A DNA stretch of 64,000 bases from Gemmatimonadota bacterium (GTDB lineage Bacteria; Gemmatimonadota; Gemmatimonadetes; Gemmatimonadales; GWC2-71-9). Shown here piece after piece: positions 6,555 through 58,230 of the stretch (position 1 is the first letter of the stretch; each line of letters opens with the position of its first letter). The position numbers were made by a program, and so were the translations under genes. The notes beneath the pieces are model-generated. The model saw only the letters and a list, made by a program, of their open reading frames with translations. It did no database searches and was not told the DNA's origin. Location: contig JBEPVA010000001.1 of assembly GCA_041691295.1 (NCBI GenBank), forward strand, positions 6,008 through 70,007, given 5' to 3'.

Positions 6555-6772
6555 ACTGACGAGGGGCGAAGAGCATGACTTAGTACTGTAAGTTATTATA
6601 TATCAGTCATTTAACAAGATTGACTGAATTCAGGGCAGTGGAGTGACCCGGGTTCTGGCAGCGACCTGTGCCGTCGGGGACTATCCGCCACTCTCTCTTG
6701 CAGAACCACCGAAGCGGTGCATCTTATTCAGCAGTTCAATCGCCGACCCGAATTCCCCCGGAGGAGATCACG

Positions 6773-7198
6773 ATGGCCGAGCTGAGCATGATGGAGATGG
6801 GCTGGTCTGGTTCCGGTTGGATGGATCCCGCCCCGATGCCGCTTGATCCGGAGCCTGTCACCCCGGCGCCGACAATGCCGCCCCGACCGGCGCCGACCAT
6901 GAGCTCGCCACCGGCGGCGGCCGCCCCGAAGAAGCCAGCGGCCAAGAAGGCAGCCGCGAAGAAGCCGGCGAAGAAGAAGCCAGCGGCCAAGAAGGCGGCG
7001 GCCGCGAAGAAACCGGCGAAGAAGAAGCCGGCCAGGAAAGCCGCCAAGAAGAAGATCGTGAAGAAGGTGGCCAGGAAGCCGGCCAGGAAAGCCGCCAAGA
7101 AGGTCAAGAAGCCGGCCAAGAAGGCCGCCCGCAAGGCGGCGAAAAAGGCCGCCAGGAAGAGCGGCAAGAAAAAGGGCGGCAAGAAGAAGAAGCGGTAG
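6773..7198 (+). CDS. histone H1-like / AlgP-like lysine-alanine-proline repeat protein
   Basis: ATG 6773 is preceded by GGAGGAG (6760-6766). The C-terminal ~110 aa are almost only A/K/P in AAKKPA/KKAARK repeats. The ORF-track start at 6668 lacks an RBS. Confidence 0.75.
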   Translation: MAELSMMEMGWSGSGWMDPAPMPLDPEPVTPAPTMPPRPAPTMSSPPAAAAPKKPAAKKAAAKKPAKKKPAAKKAAAAKKPAKKKPARKAAKKKIVKKVARKPARKAAKKVKKPAKKAARKAAKKAARKSGKKKGGKKKKR

Positions 7199-7210
7199 CT
7201 CCGCAGTCTC

Positions 7211-7245
7211 AGGCGCCCCGGTCGCGGACCGGGGCGCCTTCGTTT
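7211..7245 (+). terminator. hairpin terminator after the histone-like gene
   Basis: Perfect 13-bp stem aggcgccccggtc/gaccggggcgcct (7211-7239) with a 3-nt loop, followed by tcgtttat. Confidence 0.6.
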
Positions 7246-7317
7246 ATCCTTCCCCGTTACAGCGCGCGACATCCCGAGCAATTTTCCCTCTTGCCATCCT
7301 GGCAGGGACGCTCATTC

Positions 7318-10017: not shown

Positions 10018-10611
10018 ATGAACGATCGATCCCAGCGGATCTTCAGACACGGCGGTGTTTGGTTCGACCGCCAATCCAACCGACATCAGGGCCACGACTA
10101 TACGAAGCCGGGCGCCTATTTCGTCACGATAACGGCAGAGAGTCGAAATCGGGTCTTCGGTGGGATGCTTGATGGCCGACTAGAGCTCAATGATATCGGA
10201 TGGCTGGTCCGTGAGGCCTGGAGCACGCTCCCCGTGCACTGCCCATGGGTAGGGATTGGAGACGCGGTGGTCATGCCAGACCACTTCCATGGCATCGTCC
10301 ATATCCTTGCATCTTCGCCTGTTAGGGAGGGCGATCACAAGGATCGCCCCTACCTTGCTGGCCGACCCAAGGGGACAGTTCCGAATTCGGTCGGGCGTGC
10401 GGTTCAGGCGTTCAAGTCCCTGACGACTCGGAGATACATCGAGAAGGTCCGGGCTGATCGATGGACGAGGTATGAGGGGAGACTGTGGCAGCGGGGATAC
10501 CACGACCGGATCATCCGTGATAACGCCGAACTGGAGCGAGCACAGCAGTACATCAGGGACAACCCTCGTCGATGGATGTCCTGCAGGCCGAGGGTCCAAG
10601 GAGAACGGTAG
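10018..10611 (+). CDS. REP-associated tyrosine transposase (RAYT; IS200/IS605 Y1 transposase-like)
   Basis: 197 aa. Motifs GAYFVTI, HUH motif HFHGIVH, and C-terminal WQRGYHDRIIRD with the Tyr. Confidence 0.85.
   Translation: MNDRSQRIFRHGGVWFDRQSNRHQGHDYTKPGAYFVTITAESRNRVFGGMLDGRLELNDIGWLVREAWSTLPVHCPWVGIGDAVVMPDHFHGIVHILASSPVREGDHKDRPYLAGRPKGTVPNSVGRAVQAFKSLTTRRYIEKVRADRWTRYEGRLWQRGYHDRIIRDNAELERAQQYIRDNPRRWMSCRPRVQGER
10329..10354. repeat. REP-like hairpin H1 (inside the RAYT ORF)
   Basis: gggcgatc-acaag-gatcgccc forms a perfect 8-bp stem and is followed by ctacc. Its reverse complement matches H2 at 24/26 positions. Confidence 0.7.
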
Positions 10612-10632
10612 GGGCGATGCTTGTCATCGCCC
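10607..10632. repeat. REP-like hairpin H2 (overlaps the RAYT stop codon)
   Basis: ggtag-gggcgatg-cttgt-catcgccc. It is the inverted copy of H1, and the only two differences are compensatory in the stem. Confidence 0.7.
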
Positions 10633-10776: not shown

Positions 10777-10810
10777 CGCTTACGGCTTAAGGCTTACGGC
10801 TTATGGCTTC
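10777..10810 (+). repeat. heptamer tandem repeat GCTTANG x ~4.5
   Basis: gcttacg gcttaag gcttacg gcttatg gcttcac. The tract runs into the selD ATG (10803). Confidence 0.7.
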
Positions 10811-12145: not shown

Positions 12146-12250
12146 AGGAGTTGGAGTTTGGAATTGGGGATTCCCATTTCCCATTTCCCATTTCTCCGCT
12201 CTCCCCTCTCTGTTCTCTGTTCTCCTTTCGCCTTTCGCCTTTCGCCTTTC
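12146..12250. repeat. composite heptamer tandem-repeat tract
   Basis: ggagttggagtttggaattgggga, then TCCCATT x3, GTTCTCT x2 and CCTTTCG x4. The tract abuts the minus-strand stop at 12249-12251. On the gene's sense strand it reads GAAAGGC x4 and onward. Confidence 0.75.
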
Positions 12251-15620: not shown

Positions 15621-15661
15621 AAGGGCGGGAAAAGCGAAAAGAGAAAAGCGAAAGGGAGAGA
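15621..15661 (+). repeat. purine-rich heptamer arm (GAAAAGC family), left arm of 4HB cassette A
   Basis: gggaaaa gcgaaaa gagaaaa gcgaaag ggagaga. Positions 15634-15656 are complementary to 16112-16134. Confidence 0.8.
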
Positions 15662-15745
15662 CTCTGAGATCTATCGCGTCATTCCGACCAGCTCTCGCGT
15701 AATTGCGGTTACCCGAACGAGGTTGTCCGGTCGCATACTGTCCAC

Positions 15746-16102
15746 ATGAAGGACCACCGATCACTCAAGGCCTGGCAGGAAGCCCACCTCGTCGTAGTGG
15801 GCATTCTCAGGATCGCACGAGAATCATGGAGACCATGGGCGAGCGCAGTGTTCAGCCAGGTCCAGCGCGCCTCGTTGTCGGTGCAACTCAACATTGCCGA
15901 AGGCTGGACCTTTGGTGAATCGCCGACATCCACGCGCCACCTGAGTGTTGCCTATGGTTCAGTGGTCGAGACCCTTGACCTGCTGGATCTGATGATCGAG
16001 GCGCAGATTGCTCCGGAGGCCGAGCTTGCAACGCTGAAGAGCAATGCAGCACAATCTCAGCGCCCGCTACTCGGACTTCTCAAGCGGCGTCGACCGCTAT
16101 GA
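15746..16102 (+). CDS. four-helix-bundle protein (23S rRNA intervening-sequence protein / Avd-like family)
   Basis: 118 aa. Family pattern LKAWQEAH..., QVQRASLSVQLNIAEG, GSVVETLDLLDL. Confidence 0.85.
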   Translation: MKDHRSLKAWQEAHLVVVGILRIARESWRPWASAVFSQVQRASLSVQLNIAEGWTFGESPTSTRHLSVAYGSVVETLDLLDLMIEAQIAPEAELATLKSNAAQSQRPLLGLLKRRRPL

Positions 16103-16105
16103 GGT

Positions 16106-16143
16106 GCTTTTCCTTTTCGCATTTCTCTTTTCACTTTTCGCGC
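16106..16143 (+). repeat. pyrimidine-rich heptamer arm, right arm of 4HB cassette A
   Basis: gcttttc cttttcg catttct cttttca cttttcg. It starts 4 nt after the TGA. Confidence 0.8.
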
Positions 16144-21613: not shown

Positions 21614-22402
21614 ATGCAGCAGATCGCCCTGACCCGCCCCGTCAGCCAATCGATCAACCAGTGCGAGTTGAGCTTCATGGCGAGGGACCCGATCGACGTC
21701 GGGCGGGCCCAGCAGCAGCACGACGCCTATAACGCGCAGCTAGTCCGGCTGGGGCTGACGGTGGTGCATCTGCCGGCACTTGACCAGCTCCCCGATGCGG
21801 TGTTCGTGGAAGACACGGCGGTGGTGGTCGACGAAATTGCGGTGGCGGCACACCCCGGCGCCAGGTCCCGTGAGCCGGAGGTCGAAAGCACGGTCGAAGC
21901 TCTCAAGCGCTGGCGGAAGATTGCCCGGCTGCCGGCAGGCGCCACCCTCGACGGCGGCGATGTGCTCCGGATCGGACGCAAGTTTCTCGTCGGTGTCGCC
22001 AAGCGGACCAATCTGGCTGGCGTGGCGGGACTCGGTGCCGCCCTCGCTCCATTCGGCTACACCGTGGCCGCCGTGCCAACCCGCGACTGCCTGCACCTCA
22101 AGACGGCCTGCTCGGCCCTCGATGACCACCGGCTGCTGGTGCACCGGCCATGGGTCGACGTGTCGGCGCTGTCGGGCTACGAACTGATCGACGTTCCGGC
22201 CGGTGAGGCCTGGGCCGCCAATGTCCTGGTGCTCGGACGCGACGTGATCATGCCGCTGGGATTTCCCGAAACCCGGGAACTGCTCGAGCTGCTCGGCTTC
22301 CGGATCCACGCCGTCGACCTGTCTGAACTGCTCAAGGCCGAGTCGGGGGTGACGTGCAGCAGTATCGTCTTCTCGGGGGCCGCCACCGCACCGGTTGCTT
22401 GA
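21614..22402 (+). CDS. dimethylarginine dimethylaminohydrolase-like (amidinotransferase/pentein fold)
   Basis: Motifs FVEDTAVV, LDGGDVLR, HLKTACS, and the C-terminal nucleophile block ESGVTCSSIVF. Confidence 0.8.
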   Translation: MQQIALTRPVSQSINQCELSFMARDPIDVGRAQQQHDAYNAQLVRLGLTVVHLPALDQLPDAVFVEDTAVVVDEIAVAAHPGARSREPEVESTVEALKRWRKIARLPAGATLDGGDVLRIGRKFLVGVAKRTNLAGVAGLGAALAPFGYTVAAVPTRDCLHLKTACSALDDHRLLVHRPWVDVSALSGYELIDVPAGEAWAANVLVLGRDVIMPLGFPETRELLELLGFRIHAVDLSELLKAESGVTCSSIVFSGAATAPVA

Positions 22403-22457
22403 ACCCCCTACTCTCCCGGGCGATATTCCCGGTCCACCCCCGGAGAGTCTCCCGCCG

Positions 22458-23663
22458 ATGAAGACGCAGGGCCAGTCGCAGGATGTCTATTTCCTCTCGG
22501 GAGTCCGAACCGGATTCGGCTCCTTCGGCGGTACCCTCAAGGATCATTCGGCCACCGACCTGGGCGTCATCGCGGCCGGCGGCGCCATCGAGCGCAGCGG
22601 GGCGCCGGCCCAGGCATTCGATCATGTCGTTTTCGGCAACACCCTCCAGACTAGTGCCGACGCCATCTACCTCGCCCGCCACATCGGCCTCAAATCCGGG
22701 CTTCCGGTCGAGACCCCGGCGGTCACCGTGAACCGCCTGTGCGGTTCGGGATTTGAATCGATCATCCAGGGCGCTCAGCAGATCCTGCTCGGCGAATCGA
22801 CTGTCGTGCTGGCAGGCGGCACCGAATCGATGAGCCAGGCGCCTCACGTCCTGCGGGGCGCCCGCTGGGGCCTGCGGCTCGGACCCGCACCGCCGATGGA
22901 AGACCTGTTGTGGGAAGCGCTGCGCGATCCGCAGTGCGGGCTGTCGATGGCGGAGACCGCCGAGAACCTGGCGGACCAGTACAAGCTGAGTCGGAGCGAG
23001 GTGGATGAGGTGGCGCTGTCCAGTCAGCAGCGGGCCCGGGACAGCTGGGCCGCCGGTCATTTCGCGGTTGAGGTCGTGCCAGTCTCCATTCGCAACCGGA
23101 AGACCAAAGCCGACGAGCCCTGGGCCGCCGATGAACACATGCGGCCAGATTCCACTCTGGAAGGTCTTGCGAAGCTGGCGCCCTATTTCAAGAAGGACGG
23201 CGTGGTCACCGCCGGCAACGCATCCGGTATCTGCGATGGCGCCGCCGCGGTCGTACTGGCCGGCGAACAGGCGGTGGCCAAACTCGGACTCAAGCCGATC
23301 GGCCGGCTGGTGGCATGGGCTGTCGTGGGTGTCGATCCGAAATACATGGGTATCGGTCCGGCGCCGGCCGCCCGAAAAGCCCTGGCCAAGGCGGGCATGA
23401 AGCTGGAACAGATGGACCTGGTCGAGATCAACGAGGCCTTTGCGGCCCAGTACCTGGCGGTCGAGCGCGAACTCGGGCTCGATCGCAGCCGCACCAACGT
23501 CGATGGCGGCGCTATTGCCATCGGCCATCCGCTGGGCGCCAGCGGCACCAGGCTCACTCTGCACCTGCTGCACGCGCTCCGGCGGCGCGGCGGTCGATTC
23601 GGGCTGGCCAGCGCCTGTATCGGCGGCGGCCAGGGTGCGGCCGTCATCGTCCAACTGACATGA
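22458..23663 (+). CDS. acetyl-CoA C-acyltransferase (thiolase)
   Basis: Motifs VNRLCGSGFESI, NEAFAAQ, GGAIAIGHPLGASG, CIGGGQG. Confidence 0.9.
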   Translation: MKTQGQSQDVYFLSGVRTGFGSFGGTLKDHSATDLGVIAAGGAIERSGAPAQAFDHVVFGNTLQTSADAIYLARHIGLKSGLPVETPAVTVNRLCGSGFESIIQGAQQILLGESTVVLAGGTESMSQAPHVLRGARWGLRLGPAPPMEDLLWEALRDPQCGLSMAETAENLADQYKLSRSEVDEVALSSQQRARDSWAAGHFAVEVVPVSIRNRKTKADEPWAADEHMRPDSTLEGLAKLAPYFKKDGVVTAGNASGICDGAAAVVLAGEQAVAKLGLKPIGRLVAWAVVGVDPKYMGIGPAPAARKALAKAGMKLEQMDLVEINEAFAAQYLAVERELGLDRSRTNVDGGAIAIGHPLGASGTRLTLHLLHALRRRGGRFGLASACIGGGQGAAVIVQLT

Positions 23664-24508
23664 CCCATCCCCAGGGCGGCTCGGTGCTACCGGCACAGTG
23701 GGACCGCGAGGCGCTCGACCGGATCCTCAAGCGCGCCGCGGAGCTCCAGGCCCATGAGCGGGATACCGGCGAATCGATGACACCGGACGAGGTCCTCAAG
23801 CTGGGCCGCGATGTGGGGATTCCCGGCCAGTATCTCCAGCAGGCCATGCTGGAGGAACGAGTCAGGACCACCGCCGCCACCCCGAACGGAATCCTCGACC
23901 GCTGGGTCGGCGCGGCCGAATGCTCGGCTGGGCGAGTGGTGCGCGGTGAGCCCGCCGTGATCGAGCAGGCCATGGTCGACTGGCTTGAGGCCAATGAACT
24001 GCTGGCCATCGAGCGGCGCCAGCCGGGCCGGATCAGCTGGGAGCCGCTGCGCGGCATGGCCAGCGCCCTGCGCCGTTCCGCCGCCGCACTGGGCCGGACC
24101 CAGCGGCCATTCATGCTGTCCCGGGCCAGCCGAGTCACCGGCGGGGTCATTTCCCTCGAGCCCGGATACTGCCACGTGACCCTGGCGGCGGATCTCGGTC
24201 CGGTACGAAGCGGATACGTCGGGGGCATCGCGGGAATCAGCGCGGCCGGAGTGGCTACCGCGGGCATCCTCACCGTCATGACCCCGTTTCTCGCCATCGC
24301 GCTGGCTCCGATTCCGCTGGTACTCGGACTCGGCTGGATCATCGGACGGCAATACGGCCCGGTGCACGACCGAACCCAGCTCGGCCTCGAGCGGGCGCTC
24401 GACCATCTTGAGCAGCACGGTGGCCTCCAGCGACCGGAGGTCGGCCCCGGCAGGCCGGGAATTGTGGGGATGATTGCGGAGGAACTGAGGAAGGCACTCA
24501 AGCCATGA
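23660..24508 (+). CDS. hypothetical membrane protein
   Basis: ATG 23660 overlaps the thiolase stop (ATGA). Soluble N-domain, then TM helices (GGIAGISAAGVATAGILTVMTPFLAIALAPIPLVLGLGWII). Confidence 0.55.
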   Translation: MTHPQGGSVLPAQWDREALDRILKRAAELQAHERDTGESMTPDEVLKLGRDVGIPGQYLQQAMLEERVRTTAATPNGILDRWVGAAECSAGRVVRGEPAVIEQAMVDWLEANELLAIERRQPGRISWEPLRGMASALRRSAAALGRTQRPFMLSRASRVTGGVISLEPGYCHVTLAADLGPVRSGYVGGIAGISAAGVATAGILTVMTPFLAIALAPIPLVLGLGWIIGRQYGPVHDRTQLGLERALDHLEQHGGLQRPEVGPGRPGIVGMIAEELRKALKP

Positions 24509-24628
24509 AGAGTTGGGAGTTTGGAGGCGGGAGTTGGGAGTTTTCGAGGCAATATAGGACGCCAGACATCCTACTGATTGCTGCGCTTCATTTGCGAGCC
24601 CCTAACTCCACACTCCTGACTCCTAACC
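24509..24628 (+). repeat. gene-less purine arm / pyrimidine arm pair (GAGTTGG family)
   Basis: Arm 24509-24544 reads gagttgg gagtttg gaggcgg gagttgg gagtttt and starts right after the TGA. A 53-nt spacer follows. Arm 24598-24628 reads cctaact ccacact cctgact cctaacc. About 18/25 positions are complementary. Confidence 0.7.
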
Positions 24629-24629
24629 G

Positions 24630-25532
24630 ATGACTGAGGACCGCCCACACGTCGGCATCCTCGGCGCCGGCCTGATGGGCTCAGGCATCGCGCAGGCATG
24701 CGCCGTGGCTGGGTATCAGACCACCGTGCGGGATATTTCCGACGAGCTGCTGGCGCGGGGGCGGGCGGGGATCGTGAAGTCGCTGGGCAAGCTGATCGAG
24801 AAGGGGAAGTTGACCGCGGCCGAGCGGGATGCCGCGCTGGCTCGGCTCAGCTTCACGACCGAACTCTCGGCGCTGGCGGACTCGGGGCTGGTCATCGAAG
24901 CGGTGACCGAAGATCTGGCCGTCAAGAATGAGCTATGGCGGGCACTCGACCGGTTGTGCGGTCCGGAGGCGATCTTCGCCTCCAACACGTCGAGCCTGTC
25001 GATCGCCTCGATGGCGGCGACCACCCGGCGGCCGGATCGATTCGTCGGGCTGCATTTCTTCAATCCAGTCCCGTTGATGCCGCTGGTCGAGGTGGTCCGA
25101 ACCGCCACCACCAGTGACGAGAGCTTTGACCGGGCCATGGCGTTCGGCAGCAGCCTCGACAAGGAGGTCGTGGCGGCCAGGGACACCCCGGGCTTCATCG
25201 TCAACCGGCTGCTGGTGCCCTATCTGCTGGATGCCATGCGCGCCGTTGAACAGGGCACCGCGTCGACCGCCGATATTGATACCGCCATGAAGCTCGGCGC
25301 CGGTCACCCGATGGGGCCGCTCCTCCTGGCCGACCTCGTCGGCCTCGACACCCTGGCCAGGGTCGCCGGGATAATGTTCGCCGAGTATCGGGAAGACCGT
25401 TATGCTCCACCAGCGATACTCGAACGGATGGTCGGGACCGGGATGCTGGGCCGGAAGAGCGGAATGGGATTTTATGACTACGCTACAGATCCGCCCATGC
25501 CCGTCGATCGCAACAAACTGCGTGAGAGGTAA
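24630..25532 (+). CDS. hbd: 3-hydroxybutyryl-CoA dehydrogenase
   Basis: Motifs GILGAGLMGSGIAQ, ASNTSSLSI, HFFNPVPLMPLVEV, PGFIVNRLL. Confidence 0.9.
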   Translation: MTEDRPHVGILGAGLMGSGIAQACAVAGYQTTVRDISDELLARGRAGIVKSLGKLIEKGKLTAAERDAALARLSFTTELSALADSGLVIEAVTEDLAVKNELWRALDRLCGPEAIFASNTSSLSIASMAATTRRPDRFVGLHFFNPVPLMPLVEVVRTATTSDESFDRAMAFGSSLDKEVVAARDTPGFIVNRLLVPYLLDAMRAVEQGTASTADIDTAMKLGAGHPMGPLLLADLVGLDTLARVAGIMFAEYREDRYAPPAILERMVGTGMLGRKSGMGFYDYATDPPMPVDRNKLRER

Positions 25533-25610
25533 GAAGTGAGAGGTGAGAGGGCACTGAGATGAGCCTCCTTTTACCTGTTACCTCTCACCTGTCACCCCTC
25601 ACCTCAACCC
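25521..25610 (+). repeat. gene-less purine arm / pyrimidine arm pair (GTGAGAG family) overlapping the hbd stop
   Basis: Purine arm: cgtgaga ggtaaga agtgaga ggtgaga ggg. Pyrimidine arm: ttacctg ttacctc tcacctg tcacccc tcacctc. Positions 25522-25539 pair with 25571-25588 at 15/18. Confidence 0.75.
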
Positions 25611-25622
25611 GACTCGCACCCC

Positions 25623-26222
25623 ATGCTGCTCCTCCACGGCGATCACCCCTCCGGCTTCTCGATCTTCGGCTACGACCTGCCCCGACTCCATGCGGCGATC
25701 AACGACCTGCCCCCGGCCCTGCTGCTGGCCGCGCTGATCCTGGAGCTGCTCTACCTGCTGCGTCACCGCGAGTCGTTCCGCTCGGCCTCATACTGGACCC
25801 TGATCTTCGGCACCATCGGCACGGCGCTGGCCGTGGGATCGGGACTGCTGGCGGAAGATGCCGCGGCGCATTCCGGTGAGGCTCACGAGCTGATGGAAGT
25901 CCACAAGACGTGGGCCCTGGTCTCGCTGGGGCTGTTCGTGGTGCTGGCCGGATGGCGGATCTGGCGGGAACGGGTCATGGCCCGCGCCGAACGGTGGGGA
26001 GCGCTGGTGGCTACGCTGTTCGCCTTTTCGATTCTGGCCCGGACCGCCGCCCACGGCGGCGAGCTGGTGTTCGGCCACGCCACCGGAATCAGCAGCGACG
26101 TCCTCAAGGACGAGCTCGACGACCGGGCCAAGGGACCACACGATGCAAATGGCATGATCATGGGCGGCGAGCACGACGACCATGCCGATTCGGCCGTAGC
26201 CCACGAGCATGATTCACATTAG
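25623..26222 (+). CDS. DUF2231-like membrane protein
   Basis: 199 aa with 4 TM helices. The GGELVFGHATG block is typical of the family. His-rich tail. Confidence 0.6.
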   Translation: MLLLHGDHPSGFSIFGYDLPRLHAAINDLPPALLLAALILELLYLLRHRESFRSASYWTLIFGTIGTALAVGSGLLAEDAAAHSGEAHELMEVHKTWALVSLGLFVVLAGWRIWRERVMARAERWGALVATLFAFSILARTAAHGGELVFGHATGISSDVLKDELDDRAKGPHDANGMIMGGEHDDHADSAVAHEHDSH

Positions 26223-26733
26223 CACGAGGTGGCGGGTGCTGGGGCTGGTGGCACTCGGCGCCTGTGCGCCGGGTTCAACCAGGCCGCCGTTCAATCCGTC
26301 GCCGGCGTCGCCGTCGATCGAGCTGGGGTTGGTGCGGGCCGATGCGATTGGAAAGGTGGCCGACGCGCTCAAGGCCGACAGCATTCCGCTGGAACGGGTC
26401 GAGACCCGTGATGCCTGGCTCGAAACGCCCTGGTTCAACCAGGCCACCAACAAGCCGGAGGGAAAGCGGGCAGCCGGCTACAACGCCGTCCGGATTCGGG
26501 CCTGGGCCGAGCCGGGCCGGGCACTGCATAGCGAAGTGATCATCGAGGCCGTCTACAAGCCGGCCGCCGATCCTTCAGTGCCCGGGCGTTCGCTCGAGCG
26601 GCTCCTGCCAGCGAGTCATCCCATGGCCGTCCGTCTGGCCGCGATCGTGAAGGAACTGGTCAAGACCTACGGGGATCCGACGGCGGCGGACAGCACGGCG
26701 CCGGGGCTTCCGAGTCGCAAGCCGAAAACTTAG
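26209..26733 (+). CDS. hypothetical lipoprotein
   Basis: Leader ..VLGLVALGAC with a lipobox. No family recognised. Confidence 0.55.
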   Translation: MIHISTRWRVLGLVALGACAPGSTRPPFNPSPASPSIELGLVRADAIGKVADALKADSIPLERVETRDAWLETPWFNQATNKPEGKRAAGYNAVRIRAWAEPGRALHSEVIIEAVYKPAADPSVPGRSLERLLPASHPMAVRLAAIVKELVKTYGDPTAADSTAPGLPSRKPKT

Positions 26734-26760
26734 GAGAGAGGAAAGCAGAGAGGAAAACCT
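26734..26760 (+). repeat. purine-rich heptamer-like tract directly after a stop codon
   Basis: TAG then gagagag gaaagca gagagga aaacc. Confidence 0.5.
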
Positions 26761-26818
26761 GTTCCGCCCTTTTCATTTGTGCAGCTCCTTGAGCTGCGTC
26801 AGTTCAAGCTTTCTGAAG

Positions 26819-28144
26819 TCATTCTGTCAACTCTGGAGGATTGCCGCTTGGGGGCGAATGCGGCGGTCTCTGCACCTCCATGTCAGGCTTATGAACAACC
26901 TGCATTAGTGCGCGGCCCAAGAAGCGGTCGTCAATCCCAAGTTCAAAGCGGTATTGCCCAGCGACCAGAAACCGTGGATTCCCAAGCGGGACCTTAATAA
27001 AATCTGTTGTGTCCATTCCAGAAATGTCGGAAATCACATAATTGCGGTGCGATTCAAAGACGGCAATCAACATGCCTTGGGGGTCAATTATTCGGAGCTG
27101 AACCGTGTGGCTTCCGGTGGAATCCGCAGGGATCGTCAAACGCGCCAAGAAAGACAAGTCTCCCGCTTCGACTGGAAGAAGTATGGTCTCGATTAAGTCA
27201 ATCTCGGAGAAAATAGTCATCGCGCCCCCCGGCTCGTGCCTGAACTTGCGACAGATCACAGCATAAGAGCAGTTTATCCTCAGCGCATTGATGGGCTGTC
27301 CTCCCGCACCGACGAAGTGTACAGGTTGCCCCGCAAACATTTCTATTCGGCTAAGGCTCGGATAGGTTGTAATGGCTTTAACATTTCGACCCGGCAGGTC
27401 ATAGGTGGTCGACCATTGCCCACCGTGGAAGTCCCAGCACCTAATCCGGATCGCGCTGCCGACGCCGACCAACTCGAGATGTTTTTTATCGGCCAAGCCC
27501 AGAAACCTCCCGACCCTTGTTTCACCGCGGGGAATCGCACCAACTGTCCGTTCTGCAATTGTCTCGGACAGAGGGACAACTCCGGTCATATCTCCGCCTA
27601 ACACAATGCCATCACCGGTCGCGGAGGCCGTGAGCTCGATTGGCTCATGACCGGGCGCGAATAGATGACACTCCCATCTGCTCACCGATCCTGTCTCACC
27701 CAGATTGGTTACGGCAACGGTGGCGGCGAGCGCCATGGCTACCCGTCCATCCTGATATACGGCGTGGCCCGGCATAACTCTGTCCGGGAAACTCAGAATG
27801 AGATTCGGGCGTCGGGTTAGCTTCGCCAGCTCGCGCTCCAAGTTCTCGTTTTTCACTTCCGCGGACGTCAGAAGGTTGTACCAGCCGCGGAAGCTCCGTC
27901 CGACCAGCGCAGCAACGATGATTAAACCGGTAATCCAAATGCTATAAGATTGGGCTCTCTGCTCGTCCACTTGGCCATAGTACCTCTTCCAGTTTAGGAG
28001 CCAAATGGCGAGTGCGCAGAGGCCAGCGAACAAGTCGGCAGAGCCGCTTTGAGCGCTAAGTGACGCAGCGATCCATCGTCGTGCAATCGACGGTCTATTA
28101 CTCGTTGGTGGCGTGTCAACGCGACGACTGTTTGTTAGTGGCAA
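26819..28144 (-). CDS. membrane-anchored protein of unknown function (lower-GC gene)
   Basis: TTG 28144 lies 8 nt after GAGGAGG. 441 aa. Two N-terminal TM helices, a short coiled segment EVKNENLERELAKLTRR, then ~330 aa with no motif recognised. Confidence 0.6.
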   Translation of the reverse strand: MPLTNSRRVDTPPTSNRPSIARRWIAASLSAQSGSADLFAGLCALAIWLLNWKRYYGQVDEQRAQSYSIWITGLIIVAALVGRSFRGWYNLLTSAEVKNENLERELAKLTRRPNLILSFPDRVMPGHAVYQDGRVAMALAATVAVTNLGETGSVSRWECHLFAPGHEPIELTASATGDGIVLGGDMTGVVPLSETIAERTVGAIPRGETRVGRFLGLADKKHLELVGVGSAIRIRCWDFHGGQWSTTYDLPGRNVKAITTYPSLSRIEMFAGQPVHFVGAGGQPINALRINCSYAVICRKFRHEPGGAMTIFSEIDLIETILLPVEAGDLSFLARLTIPADSTGSHTVQLRIIDPQGMLIAVFESHRNYVISDISGMDTTDFIKVPLGNPRFLVAGQYRFELGIDDRFLGRALMQVVHKPDMEVQRPPHSPPSGNPPELTE

Positions 28145-31154: not shown

Positions 31155-31180
31155 GCCGTTAGCCGTTAGCCATTAGCTGA
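31155..31180 (+). repeat. heptamer tandem repeat GCCGTTA x3
   Basis: gccgtta gccgtta gccatta gctga, 10 nt after the rSAM stop. Confidence 0.65.
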
Positions 31181-31193
31181 TCGGATAGAAAAC

Positions 31194-31230
31194 GACCCTC
31201 CGGTGGCTGGTGCCGGAGGGTCGATTTCTT
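31194..31230 (+). terminator. intrinsic terminator after the rSAM gene
   Basis: Stem gaccctccgg/ccggagggtc (10 bp), loop tggctggtg, then gatttctt. Confidence 0.6.
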
Positions 31231-31345
31231 CCAGGATTCGGTATTGGCGTTAGGAGCTGGCTTACTTGACGCGACTGCGGAACAACACAGTAAGTCAGTC
31301 GACTTTCCATGTGGCCCGAGCTCTGTCGACATTCCTGGATAGCAG

Positions 31346-52923: not shown

Positions 52924-52978
52924 GGCGGGCGGGCGGGCGGGCGGGCGGGCGGGCGGGCGGGCGGGCGGGCGGGCGGGC
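52924..52978. repeat. (GGGC)n tetranucleotide tract, ~13 units; distal arm of 4HB cassette B
   Basis: ggcgggcgggc... spans 55 nt and starts 8 nt after the SusD stop. It is complementary to 53521-53535, allowing one G:U pair. Confidence 0.85.
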
Positions 52979-53005
52979 CGAAGCTGCCTGCACCGCCACA
53001 AACCA

Positions 53006-53437
53006 TCAAGTCATCGATTGGGCAGGTGGAGTCTTCGACTCCCCGGCCCTTTTGGCTACAGCGGCGTAAAGGCCCCAAGTTAGCCGAGTCGCATGATCCC
53101 TGAGCGCCTCAATCTCACCGTATTTCTCGGCACTTGTGTATTCCAAGTCTCTAGAGAGCAAGAGAAGGTAGGAAAGTTCGGACAATGAGCCGAGCGAAAT
53201 ATCCAAGTATCGACGAAACTCTCGGCTCCCGCGTTTGGCGCAACCCTCGGCGATATTGACCACGGCCGAGACTGCGGCACGGCGAGCCTGGGAAGTCAGT
53301 CCGTAGACCTCGAATTTCGGCCACGACTCGGTCGCGCGGTACGTCGCCAGCGCAAGGTCGTGGCAAGCGACCCAGGCAGTGAATCGCTCGTATGGCTTGC
53401 CAGGGCGTTTCTTAGAAGACTTGATCGTATTGAGCAT
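53006..53437 (-). CDS. four-helix-bundle protein (23S rRNA IVS protein / Avd-like family), second copy
   Basis: The start is taken at the internal ATG 53437. Family pattern FTAWVACHDLALATY, SQARRAAVSAVVNIAEG, GSLSELSYLLLLS. Confidence 0.8.
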   Translation of the reverse strand: MLNTIKSSKKRPGKPYERFTAWVACHDLALATYRATESWPKFEVYGLTSQARRAAVSAVVNIAEGCAKRGSREFRRYLDISLGSLSELSYLLLLSRDLEYTSAEKYGEIEALRDHATRLTWGLYAAVAKRAGESKTPPAQSMT

Positions 53438-53518
53438 ACGATACAGTAGGACCGCCGATGACACTCCGCATAACCGAAACTTTGCGCTGATACCCAAAAC
53501 AACGCCGTAGTCGTCTTT

Positions 53519-53544
53519 CTGCCCGCCTGCCCGCCTGCCCCCCC
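53519..53544. repeat. GCCCGCCT repeat; proximal arm of 4HB cassette B
   Basis: ctgcccgcctgcccgcctgccccccc. On the gene's sense strand this is a purine arm ~80 nt upstream of the ATG. Confidence 0.8.
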
Positions 53545-56582: not shown

Positions 56583-56665
56583 GCCTTTTCGCTTTTCGCT
56601 TTTCGCTTTTCGCTTTTCGTTGTTCGCCCTCTCACCTCTTACCTCTTACCTCTCACCTTTTACGA
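56583..56665 (-). repeat. composite heptamer tract (GTGAGAG family then GAAAAGC family on the sense strand), overlapping a stop codon
   Basis: The plus strand reads CTTTTCG x4-5, then ccctctc acctctt acctctt acctctc. Positions 56626-56656 are 29/31 identical (as reverse complement) to 25522-25552. Confidence 0.8.
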
Positions 56666-57965: not shown

Positions 57966-58004
57966 GGGCAGATCGGCTTCCCGTGGCTATTCAATAGTCA
58001 GTGA

Positions 58005-58046
58005 CCCTCGACCCTCGACCCTCGACCCTCGACTCTAGACTCTACA
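58005..58046 (-). repeat. heptamer tandem repeat CCCTCGA x4 + CTCTAGA + CTCTACA (GTCGAGG family on the sense strand)
   Basis: Overlaps the TAG stop (58042-58044) of the DUF3565-like gene. Confidence 0.85.
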
Positions 58047-58230
58047 CTCCGCCACAGAGCCGACATTCCAGCTCCATCCCAATCTTGCCGTCGCGCCCAT
58101 CCGGCGTGGTGACCCATTCCCGAACCTGCCACGGCGGATCGTGCCTCACGTGCTGGTTGTGGCCACACTCAAGCTCAGCCACCCACTGTTGCTCGGCATC
58201 GAGATGAAACCCGGTGATTTTCCGGCGCAT
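58042..58230 (-). CDS. DUF3565-like small protein
   Basis: 62 aa from the internal ATG 58230. WVAELECGHNQHVRHDPPWQVREWV...ELECRLCGG matches the family pattern. Confidence 0.6.
   Translation of the reverse strand: MRRKITGFHLDAEQQWVAELECGHNQHVRHDPPWQVREWVTTPDGRDGKIGMELECRLCGGV

Follow-up and report, generated by a model that had tools for sequence, protein, structure and literature searches.

In a 64,000-nt stretch of a Gemmatimonadota genome (GenBank assembly GCA_041691295.1, contig JBEPVA010000001.1, positions 6,008 to 70,007; hereafter the window), the 3-hydroxyacyl-CoA dehydrogenase gene hbd is flanked by two long imperfect hairpins, IG1 and IG2, whose arms are tandem heptamer arrays with the G-rich array first. 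Both are derived insertions coupled to stop codons, and both belong to a family of heptamer-armed hairpins that extends across the Gemmatimonadales and also occurs in Thermoanaerobaculia. They are probably palindromic insertions resembling the intervening sequences (IVSs) of ribosomal RNA (rRNA) genes, devoid of an open reading frame (ORF) and lodged in an operon as copies of this family. No account of heptamer hairpins in Gemmatimonadota was found in the literature, and the family is apparently widespread but undescribed.

The operon and its two elements are arranged as follows, in window coordinates.

22395-23663, thiolase, operon member upstream
23660-24508, + strand, upstream gene of 282 aa without Pfam match; its stop abuts IG1
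24509-24544, + strand, IG1 5' arm: G-rich tandem heptamers of the GAGTTGG/GGGAGTT type, found by Tandem Repeats Finder (TRF) and paired in the minimum-energy fold
24545-24597, + strand, IG1 spacer of 53 nt, without ORF
24598-24628, + strand, IG1 3' arm: C-rich complement of the CCTAACT type plus one CTGACTC unit
24630-25532, + strand, hbd, 3-hydroxyacyl-CoA dehydrogenase (Pfam), with its C-terminus rewritten by IG2
25521-25553, + strand, IG2 5' arm: GTGAGAG and GTAAGAA heptamers
25554-25570, + strand, IG2 loop, without ORF; the inter-arm distance is 23-31 nt, depending on register
25571-25610, + strand, IG2 3' arm: heptamers of the CCTCTCAC and CCTGTCAC type
25623-26222, + strand, DUF2231 membrane protein gene downstream of IG2, with its ATG at 25623

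Anatomy of the two hairpins

A preliminary description, made from the sequence alone, had reported two pairs of complementary arms beside hbd, each starting at or on a stop codon and ending ahead of the next start codon. TRF, the sequence and the predicted fold all bear this out. In IG1, TRF finds GAGTTGG in 4.7 copies at 24510-24542 and CCTAACT in 3.9 copies at 24601-24627; in IG2, GTGAGAG in 4.1 copies at 25522-25550 and ACCTGTC in 4.6 copies at 25573-25604. Both elements are thus heptanucleotide simple sequence repeats (SSRs) in the usual sense of intergenic tandem 7-nt units with at least three copies. The first base of the IG1 5' arm lies directly 3' of the upstream TGA (24506-24508), and a single nucleotide separates the end of the 3' arm from the hbd ATG. 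In IG2, the hbd stop TAA (25530-25532) lies inside the second heptamer of the 5' arm, which encodes the end of the protein (...LRER-stop).

The folding check proposed with the preliminary description was run, and both spacers fold far better than shuffled sequences (z about -3.7). The RNA of IG1 (24500-24640) has a minimum free energy of -52.4 kcal/mol (z = -3.64), a stability reached by 0 of 200 dinucleotide shuffles; for IG2 the value is -39.3 kcal/mol (z = -3.71), reached by 1 of 200. The terminal inverted repeats give a stem of about 20-30 bp, as the IVS class requires. For IG2 the inverted repeat can be aligned over 29 nt at 79% complementarity, or over 25 nt at 84% in a register shifted by 7 nt. 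Tandem-repeat arms therefore permit several pairing registers 7 nt apart, and the 15/18 pairing of 25522-25539 with 25571-25588 given previously is real but only one among them. IG2 is identical in an independent public assembly (Logan SRR27874556, locus L167; related loci are referred to below by such numbers) and is therefore not an assembly artefact. Rfam reports no family at gathering score and no rRNA in the window; at E<=1 it returns only sub-threshold generic miRNA-hairpin matches, which reflect hairpin shape alone.

Turnover at orthologous sites

The derived state of both elements emerges from comparison with the closest relatives of hbd, all of them Gemmatimonadales metagenome-assembled genomes with 65-70% amino-acid identity. 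Gene order in the operon is conserved in these relatives, and the genes overlap or stand 9 nt apart. In most of them hbd ends in ...DLGL-stop, followed by TGAggagacccgATG or ggagacccgATG. IG2 has replaced this ancestral end by ...RNKLRER-stop (in the window, PVD followed by RNKLRER-stop). Other relatives also read from hbd into an array: L003 and L020 continue from DLGL into GKA-stop, L007 from ELGL into GGTQSVGGKR-stop, L012 from MDV into KEVNSEK-stop and L021 from VEL into R-stop. In L002, L008, L040 and L039, the hairpin follows immediately after the native hbd stop.

A neighbour-joining tree of hbd groups the window with L012, L003 and L007, all of which bear a hairpin at the IG2 site. The units at this site differ across the group (GTGAGAG, GTGAAAA, GTGAACG and GTAAGCG). 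The IG1 site is occupied less often: a counterpart occurs only in L002, where the hairpin starts on the TGA and has AGCTATT/AGCGATT units unlike those of IG1, and L027 has a partial array. A third site, after the DUF2231 gene, carries a hairpin throughout the subclade of L018, L037, L024, L038 and L028, with remnants in L047 and L035. Its units drift from GCGGAAC/GTTCCGC through GCGGAAT to GCGGATT/AATCCGC with the 3' arm in step, and its loops, of 8-68 nt, are unrelated in sequence. Both arms thus change together at orthologous sites, and the arms therefore evolve in concert. Judged from these loci, hairpin presence and absence turn over on the time-scale of genera.

Traces of the native spacers may persist within the elements. 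On the 3' side of IG2, the 21 nt at 25602-25622 are similar to what relative L017 has as its native spacer. Within the IG1 5' arm, 24524-24530 reads GGAGGCG, the same as the ribosome-binding region before hbd in L012 (…caGGAGGCGagctcgGTG); the match could be due to chance, or the native spacer may have left it as a remnant or supplied it as a seed. No recognisable Shine-Dalgarno sequence precedes hbd or the DUF2231 gene after the insertions. Upstream of IG1, an overlapping - strand ORF was considered as the neighbouring gene and rejected, the + strand ORF at 23660-24508 having a C-terminus (...RKALKP-stop) that is kept in relatives.

A family of heptamer-armed hairpins

Two censuses place IG1 and IG2 in a larger family. 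TRF, run on the window and 80 related hbd loci (862 kb), found 116 arrays of period 7, against 56 of period 6, 23 of period 8 and 38 of period 9. When period-7 arrays were used as seeds in a search for a complementary partner, 124 complementary array pairs were recovered from 1.10 Mb of Gemmatimonadales and Acidobacteriota DNA, while 142 of the 266 period-7 arrays had no such partner. The G-rich arm lies upstream in 108 of the 124 pairs and the C-rich arm comes first in 5. This order reads alike on both strands and is therefore a property of the element rather than of the direction of transcription. IG1 and IG2 both follow it, with a G-rich heptamer array 5' and its complement 3'.

Spacer lengths in these pairs are bimodal: 46 are shorter than 100 nt and 70 measure 400-600 nt, with a single pair at 200-400 nt. 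The short ("empty") class is a hairpin only, with 7-150 nt between the arms, and the ratio of short to long forms is about 40:2 in the unbiased 862-kb sample. Elements of the family land on a stop codon or in the gap from there to the next ribosome-binding site, and the short forms are located at the ends of genes. The 5' arm begins -23 to +4 nt from the upstream stop in 22 of 29 co-directional or convergent contexts, as far as gene calls from a crude heuristic of ORFs and third-position G+C can tell, and the 3' arm frequently ends 1-20 nt ahead of the next gene. Units are shared within a genome in 4 of 22 cases, compared with 3.8% between genomes. In the window (G+C content 63.8%), the IG1 unit recurs at 12147, the IG2 unit at 56628 and the unit of a PF05635 cassette described below (cassette A) at 56585. 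Further arrays of the window are listed here.

12147-12250, no strand assigned, further member: a GGAGTTGGAGTTTGG arm (GGAGTTG, the IG1 unit) paired with TTCCCAT repeats, then unpaired TCTCCGC and TTCGCCT arrays
56585-56658, - strand, unpaired arrays (TGAGAGG)4(CGAAAAG)6, of which GTGAGAG is the IG2 unit and GAAAAGC the cassette A unit
58003-58049, - strand, unpaired array (GACCCTC)4(GACTCTA)2 between two - strand genes

The stop codon TAA of an amidohydrolase gene (56646-56648) lies in GGTGAGAGGTAAGAGG, paralleling the hbd stop in IG2.

Some further observations concern the contact between arrays and genes. The unrelated amidohydrolase (56628-56658) and hbd (25521-25553) both end in element-derived GTGAGAGGTAA (...ER-stop), and heptamer arrays thus provide the C-terminal residues and stop codon of both. 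An unpaired (GCCGTTA)3.3 array stands directly 3' of a stop codon in the 31155-31232 region, with the intrinsic terminator described below coming after it, and an unpaired (GCTTACG)4.6 array at 10778-10809 enters the start of an AIR-synthase-related (SelD-like) gene at 10803.

The long form: PF05635 cassettes

The long form of the family carries a gene for a four-helix-bundle (4HB) protein between its arms, preceded by a promoter-like leader of about 75 nt. Pfam assigns both 4HB genes of the window to PF05635, the "23S rRNA intervening sequence protein".

15625-16143, + strand, cassette A: arms 15625-15657 and 16111-16143 of GAAAAGC units, 33 nt, 88% complementary
52924-53540, - strand, cassette B: PF05635 ORF 53006-53437 (-) between (GGCG)n at 52924-52978 and (CTGCCCGC)n at 53519-53540

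Cassette A has an 88-nt leader and its PF05635 ORF at 15746-16102. The arms of cassette B are a perfect (GGCG)13.8 tetranucleotide array and (CTGCCCGC)2.8, with a period of 4/8 rather than 7. Its G-rich arm lies 5' on the sense strand, and the arm rule therefore holds with a period other than 7.

A sample of copy A homologues and their DNA gave 73 loci with enough flanking sequence. In 66 of these (non-redundant), a G/A-rich arm of 21-137 nt is followed by a leader of about 60-100 nt, the ORF, 0-25 nt and the complementary arm. All 66 PF05635 genes with detectable arms, as well as both window copies, are thus of the long form. The self-similarity of cassette arms peaks at a 7-nt shift (0.67, compared with about 0.3 at other shifts), and the unit logo is G-T-R-A-R-C-R. 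The IG2 unit GTGAGAG fits this logo at 6 of 7 positions, and both GTGAGAG and GTAAGAA, as they stand in IG2, are found unchanged in the arms of 4HB cassette L095. The common arm type, the shared orientation rule and the IG2 units in L095 uphold, at the level of the family, the kinship between gene-less pairs and 4HB cassettes that had been suspected earlier; the membership of IG1 and IG2 in the element family of the cassettes is well supported.

Many cassettes occupy orthologous loci across several groups of genomes. Cassette A has an aminopeptidase gene on one side and a DUF421 gene on the other, and fits exactly between stop codon and ribosome-binding site. It is found at the same site in L168 (97% aminopeptidase identity) and L170/L171 (85%), with outer ends CAGCGCGAAAAG...CTTTTCGCGCTG. 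In L173 (78%), only a 10-nt spacer is present, TAAggagcacgccATG, with neither arms nor gene. The state in L173 is thus "nothing" and not an "empty hairpin", and arms and cargo therefore come or go as a unit. More distant aminopeptidase homologues have a different synteny. Comparison of the cassette A junctions with the unoccupied site of L173 revealed no target-site duplication.

Several features of the cassettes stand beside these results. Start codons of 4HB genes (leaders L081-L166; in the window, 15658-15745 and 53438-53518) have a TAnnnT or nAnCTTG-like box 5-7 nt upstream, which suggests that leaderless mRNAs could arise from an internal promoter. A ATTGGTAC-like motif recurs about 55 nt upstream in 4HB leaders. 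In at least seven locus pairs (L106/L133, L106/L137, L099/L115, L112/L147, L153/L159, L146/L164 and L126/L120), the module of promoter and ORF has opposite orientations with respect to its neighbouring genes, and the breakpoints of the inversion fall inside the heptamer arms. On this pattern, cassettes either behave as invertible segments or enter the same site in both orientations. Inverted modules with breakpoints in the arms point to arm-arm recombination, which would also explain the concerted evolution of the arms. A "three-frame stop array" was also considered as a property of the arms. Read inward, arms close all three frames in 59-62% of cassettes, compared with 7-8% of shuffles and 33-36% of empty hairpins. 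The idea stands here as no more than a remark: a repeated random heptamer of this composition would do so in about 29% of cases by our own estimate, cassettes are phylogenetically non-independent and IG1 has no stops.

Comparison with known elements

The closest known counterparts are the IVSs of rRNA genes. The 23S IVS of Coxiella burnetii forms a 28-bp stem around an S23p (PF05635) ORF. The 5' arm of this stem contains GACAGAT/GACAGAA heptamers in tandem, cleavage by RNase III takes place within the stem at the first of them, the RNA thus released is unstable and the number of heptamers varies between strains (PMC4990558). GACAGAA also makes up the arms of the Gemmatimonadales cassette L088 (about 2240-2290 and 2735-2775). 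Shared with the IVSs of Coxiella burnetii and Leptospira (PMC4990558) are the terminal inverted repeats, the stem of about 28 bp, the purine-rich 5' heptamers and their variable copy number, the PF05635 cargo (in the family's long form) and the existence of classes with and without an ORF. IG1 and IG2 differ from these IVSs in lying between protein-coding genes and not in a 23S helix (9, 25 or 45), and from the long IVS class in lacking a PF05635 ORF. The window cassettes also differ in that they apparently have a promoter-like leader of their own. Among rRNA IVSs, an ORF-less class exists (the Salmonella type), and it is of these short elements that IG1 and IG2 would be the counterparts in mRNA spacers.

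Repetitive extragenic palindromic (REP) sequences and bacterial interspersed mosaic elements (BIMEs) are likewise imperfect palindromes, present in many copies per genome just 3' of stop codons inside operons, and a role in mRNA stability or translation is ascribed to them. However, all REPs of a genome follow a single consensus, whereas in the present family the unit is particular to each copy and the arms are tandem repeats. REP-associated tyrosine transposases (RAYTs) offer a further test: the Y1 transposase of the window (10018-10611) is linked to the palindrome GGGCGATC..GATCGCCCC, not to heptamers. As a separate observation, this IS200-like Y1 transposase (PF01797, E = 1.1e-5) is accompanied by 31-nt palindrome-forming GGGCGATCACAAGGATCGCCCC at 10329-10359 (in the ORF) and 10602-10632 (after it), and looks like a separate REP/RAYT-type system.

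Miniature inverted-repeat transposable elements (MITEs) and Correia elements are also short, non-coding intergenic insertions with terminal inverted repeats, some of them overlapping gene ends, and some Correia elements are cut by RNase III. In contrast to MITEs, the family presented here has no near-identical copies, and neither a target-site duplication nor a transposase partner was found for it. Intrinsic terminators, too, are stem-loops after stop codons, but IG1 and IG2 have no U-tract, a position internal to an operon and, like the family, stems of 25-35 bp with large loops.

The short tandemly repeated repetitive (STRR) sequences of cyanobacteria were reportedly described by Mazel in 1990. 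Such heptanucleotide repeats (for instance TAACTGA; PMC4679880) resemble the present arrays as intergenic tandem heptamers with lineage-specific units. They were published as direct repeats, with one inverted set among 170 reported by MacGregor, whereas the elements here combine a G-rich array with its complement in a fixed orientation and are linked to 4HB genes. A similar link occurs in cyanobacteria, where tandem heptamers border the PF05635 genes of plasmids from Nostoc, Aulosira, Pseudanabaena and Calothrix at the following loci.

L174, 660-700
L175, about 545-575
L176, 655-700
L177, 500-700 and 1060-1160

GGAGTCA repeats abut the PF05635 start codon in Nostoc punctiforme and Aulosira; Pseudanabaena has AAAAGCT/AAAAGCC and AGCGATT/AGCTTTT arrays, and Calothrix AGCGATT/AGCTGTT. 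The hairpin that L002 has at the IG1 site uses the last of these units as well. Some units recur across phyla, which suggests that the association between PF05635 and heptamers is old and general. No paper stating this association was found; the searchable literature holds only the Coxiella IVS observation, the one report found that ties PF05635 to flanking repeats, and the direct heptamer repeats.

Proposed folding in the transcript

How might insertions of this kind be tolerated? Under the IVS-like reading, transcription of the operon from thiolase through hbd to DUF2231 would allow each element to fold into a stem of about 27 bp. Such a stem would juxtapose its flanks, and an insertion of 90-120 nt could thereby be tolerated in a tightly packed operon. 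By analogy with the Coxiella burnetii IVS, the stems would be RNase III substrates, and instead of ending transcription they might separate the cistrons on either side by cleavage or insulate them. The base of the IG1 stem has the stop codon on one side and the start codon on the other, and coupling across the stem is conceivable, as speculation. Folding in vivo, cleavage and any effect on expression are predictions from this analogy.

Several observations weigh against a role at the RNA level or against the IVS-like reading as a whole. RNA-level selection on the sense strand should favour G.U over A.C mismatches in the arms, but no wobble asymmetry was seen in cassettes (79 G.U, 93 A.C) or in co-directional empty hairpins (21 and 17). 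IG2 folds better as antisense (-46.5 kcal/mol) than as sense (-38.3 kcal/mol), and IG1 slightly better as sense (-51.5 kcal/mol) than as antisense (-47.9 kcal/mol). With no sense-strand wobble bias and inconsistent strand folds, the likeliest source of the complementarity is the origin of the elements or homogenisation at the DNA level. The elements may thus simply be young, or maintained at the DNA level, with the RNA stem a by-product; a stem of about 27 bp will be present in the transcript all the same. The IG1 unit GGGAGTT, moreover, fits the cassette logo at only 3-4 of 7 positions, and the IG1 arms are more degenerate. No transposase, clear target-site duplication or conserved termini beyond a frequent outer "GCG" were seen, the change at the L173 site may have been a gain or a loss, and gene ends in related loci depend on the heuristic calls mentioned above.

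Alternative explanations

The alternative that survives best treats IG1 and IG2 as MITE-like, non-autonomous copies that are mobilised, maintained or inverted in trans by the cassette 4HB protein, or a factor recruited by it, acting on the arms. We consider it unlikely, although much of the family's anatomy would suit it. The two size classes share the same arms and orientation rule, short forms greatly outnumber long ones in the 862 kb, units are shared within genomes and 4HB modules are inverted between orthologous loci at breakpoints in the arms. The tie between 4HB genes and heptamers recurs in three other settings (the Coxiella IVS, Nostocales plasmids and Pseudanabaena plasmids). PF05635 is also similar to Avd, which handles nucleic acids as an accessory protein of diversity-generating retroelements (PMC10053308). 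However, a four-helix bundle of 120 aa has no known catalytic activity, and cassettes found at orthologous loci in many genomes are stably settled rather than highly mobile. Target-site duplications were not observed, and none of the 80 hbd loci, with about 40 hairpins, has a nearby 4HB gene (a count of loci, not of whole genomes). An equally tentative extension, which we also hold to be unlikely, would make PF05635 proteins the trans-acting partner of cross-phylum heptamer-armed palindromes, with rRNA IVSs, STRR arrays and Gemmatimonadales hairpins as one system in which IG1 and IG2 are non-autonomous. The inward G-rich 5'-to-3' geometry could then record how arms are made, for instance if a polymerase or reverse transcriptase assisted by Avd extended both 3' ends of a break on a template. 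Alternatively, the geometry may be upheld by arm-to-arm recombination that also inverts the cargo.

Slightly less credible is an origin in situ, in which neutral SSRs grow by slippage and intra-strand template switching copies one arm onto the other, with neither insertion nor function. In many prokaryotes, no class of long SSR is commoner than heptanucleotide repeats, and these have been attributed to slippage of the polymerase (literature reviewed in PMC4679880). Partnerless arrays (142 of 266), the lack of an RNA-strand wobble bias and units that differ between genomes at one site would all fit, and GGAGGCG in the IG1 5' arm, matching the ribosome-binding region of L012, could have been a seed. 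Yet slippage does not predict an orientation bias of 108:5, nor the presence or absence of a whole unit with sharp inverted ends at the cassette A site. The persistence of hairpins at orthologous sites with both arms changing together, and the identical units at several sites of one genome, also speak against it.

The preliminary description had offered two further readings, pre-insertion sites and decayed cassettes. If IG1 and IG2 were landing pads, empty hairpins would come first and a promoter-plus-4HB module would later enter the loop. The bimodal spacers with common arms agree with such a sequence of events, as does the position of rRNA IVSs in loops of existing helices (PMC4990558), such as 23S helices 25 and 45. 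The comparison with relatives that had been suggested found no 4HB gene between arms equivalent to those of IG1 or IG2: tblastn detected none within +/-6 kb of hbd in any of the 80 related loci, and neither the IG2 hairpin of the nearest hbd relatives nor the post-DUF2231 hairpin of the other subclade holds one in any relative. At the one comparable site, cassette A, the unfilled state in L173 has no arms at all, and cassette leaders and trailers have no conserved ends that would mark an inserted module. The proposal finds no support in the form in which it was put, and we regard landing pads as decidedly improbable; arms seem to travel with their cargo rather than pre-exist, although a two-step history may be possible at what is a single site.

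More doubtful again are factor-independent terminators or attenuators of a type without a U-tract. The position directly 3' of stop codons is suggestive, and some members are flanked by an A-run and a T-run (AAAAGCGTGAAC...GTTTACGCTTTT in L093; ...CACGTTTTTC in L007 and L083). IG1 and IG2 have no T-run and had for that reason been set apart from classical intrinsic terminators at the outset; the sequence agrees, as does a scan of 22300-27000, which found no T-run, terminator or sigma-70 pattern at either element. Efficient termination inside the operon would silence hbd and the DUF2231 gene, and the stems are far longer than terminator stems. Ordinary terminators exist in this genome, including a textbook case at 31190-31232 with a 13-bp G+C-rich stem followed by GATTTCTT. 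IG1 and IG2 are unlikely to be efficient terminators because they have no U-tract, lie inside a conserved operon and share the genome with this classical terminator.

Decay of 4HB cassettes through loss of the ORF is largely refuted despite the shared arm type: in Smith-Waterman alignments against 132 cassette leaders and trailers, the scores of the IG1 spacer and the IG2 loop were reached by 86 and 35 of 200 dinucleotide shuffles, respectively, intermediate sizes are absent (one pair at 200-400 nt), and the same intergenic site is hairpin-occupied across a subclade with no 4HB gene in any member. The 8-mer TCCTACTG, noted at the outset, is truly common to the IG1 spacer and the leader of 4HB copy B, where it lies 7-14 nt before the ATG, at the place of the TAnnnT-like box of cassettes; it is no evidence of descent, as its two occurrences in the window (0.78 expected) are at chance level, 18 of 100 shuffles reaching two.

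A repeat-rich ORF in the window

Apart from the heptamer family, the window contains a 181-aa ORF at 6736-7281 (- strand) with tandem repeats of 15, 30 and 48 nt and Lys/Ala-rich motifs (AAGAAGCCAGCGGCC...) and without a Pfam match. From its sequence, it looks like a histone-H1-like basic repeat protein.

Implications

In summary, IG1 and IG2 represent a variant among foldable intergenic insertions, a group that includes IVS, REP and MITE-like elements. For annotation, such elements rewrite the 3' ends of genes, as in the last residues of hbd, and remove recognisable ribosome-binding sites ahead of the genes that follow. If the IVS-like reading is true, IVS-like elements would not be peculiar to rRNA genes, and would instead be general foldable insertions in stop-to-start gaps in soil phyla. 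We know of no function for the four-helix-bundle proteins of PF05635 since their discovery in rRNA intervening sequences, and the family would provide a testable handle on the role of PF05635/S23p. It would also provide a handle on why heptanucleotide repeats dominate bacterial intergenic simple repeats, and on how tightly coupled operons tolerate insertions of 100 nt.

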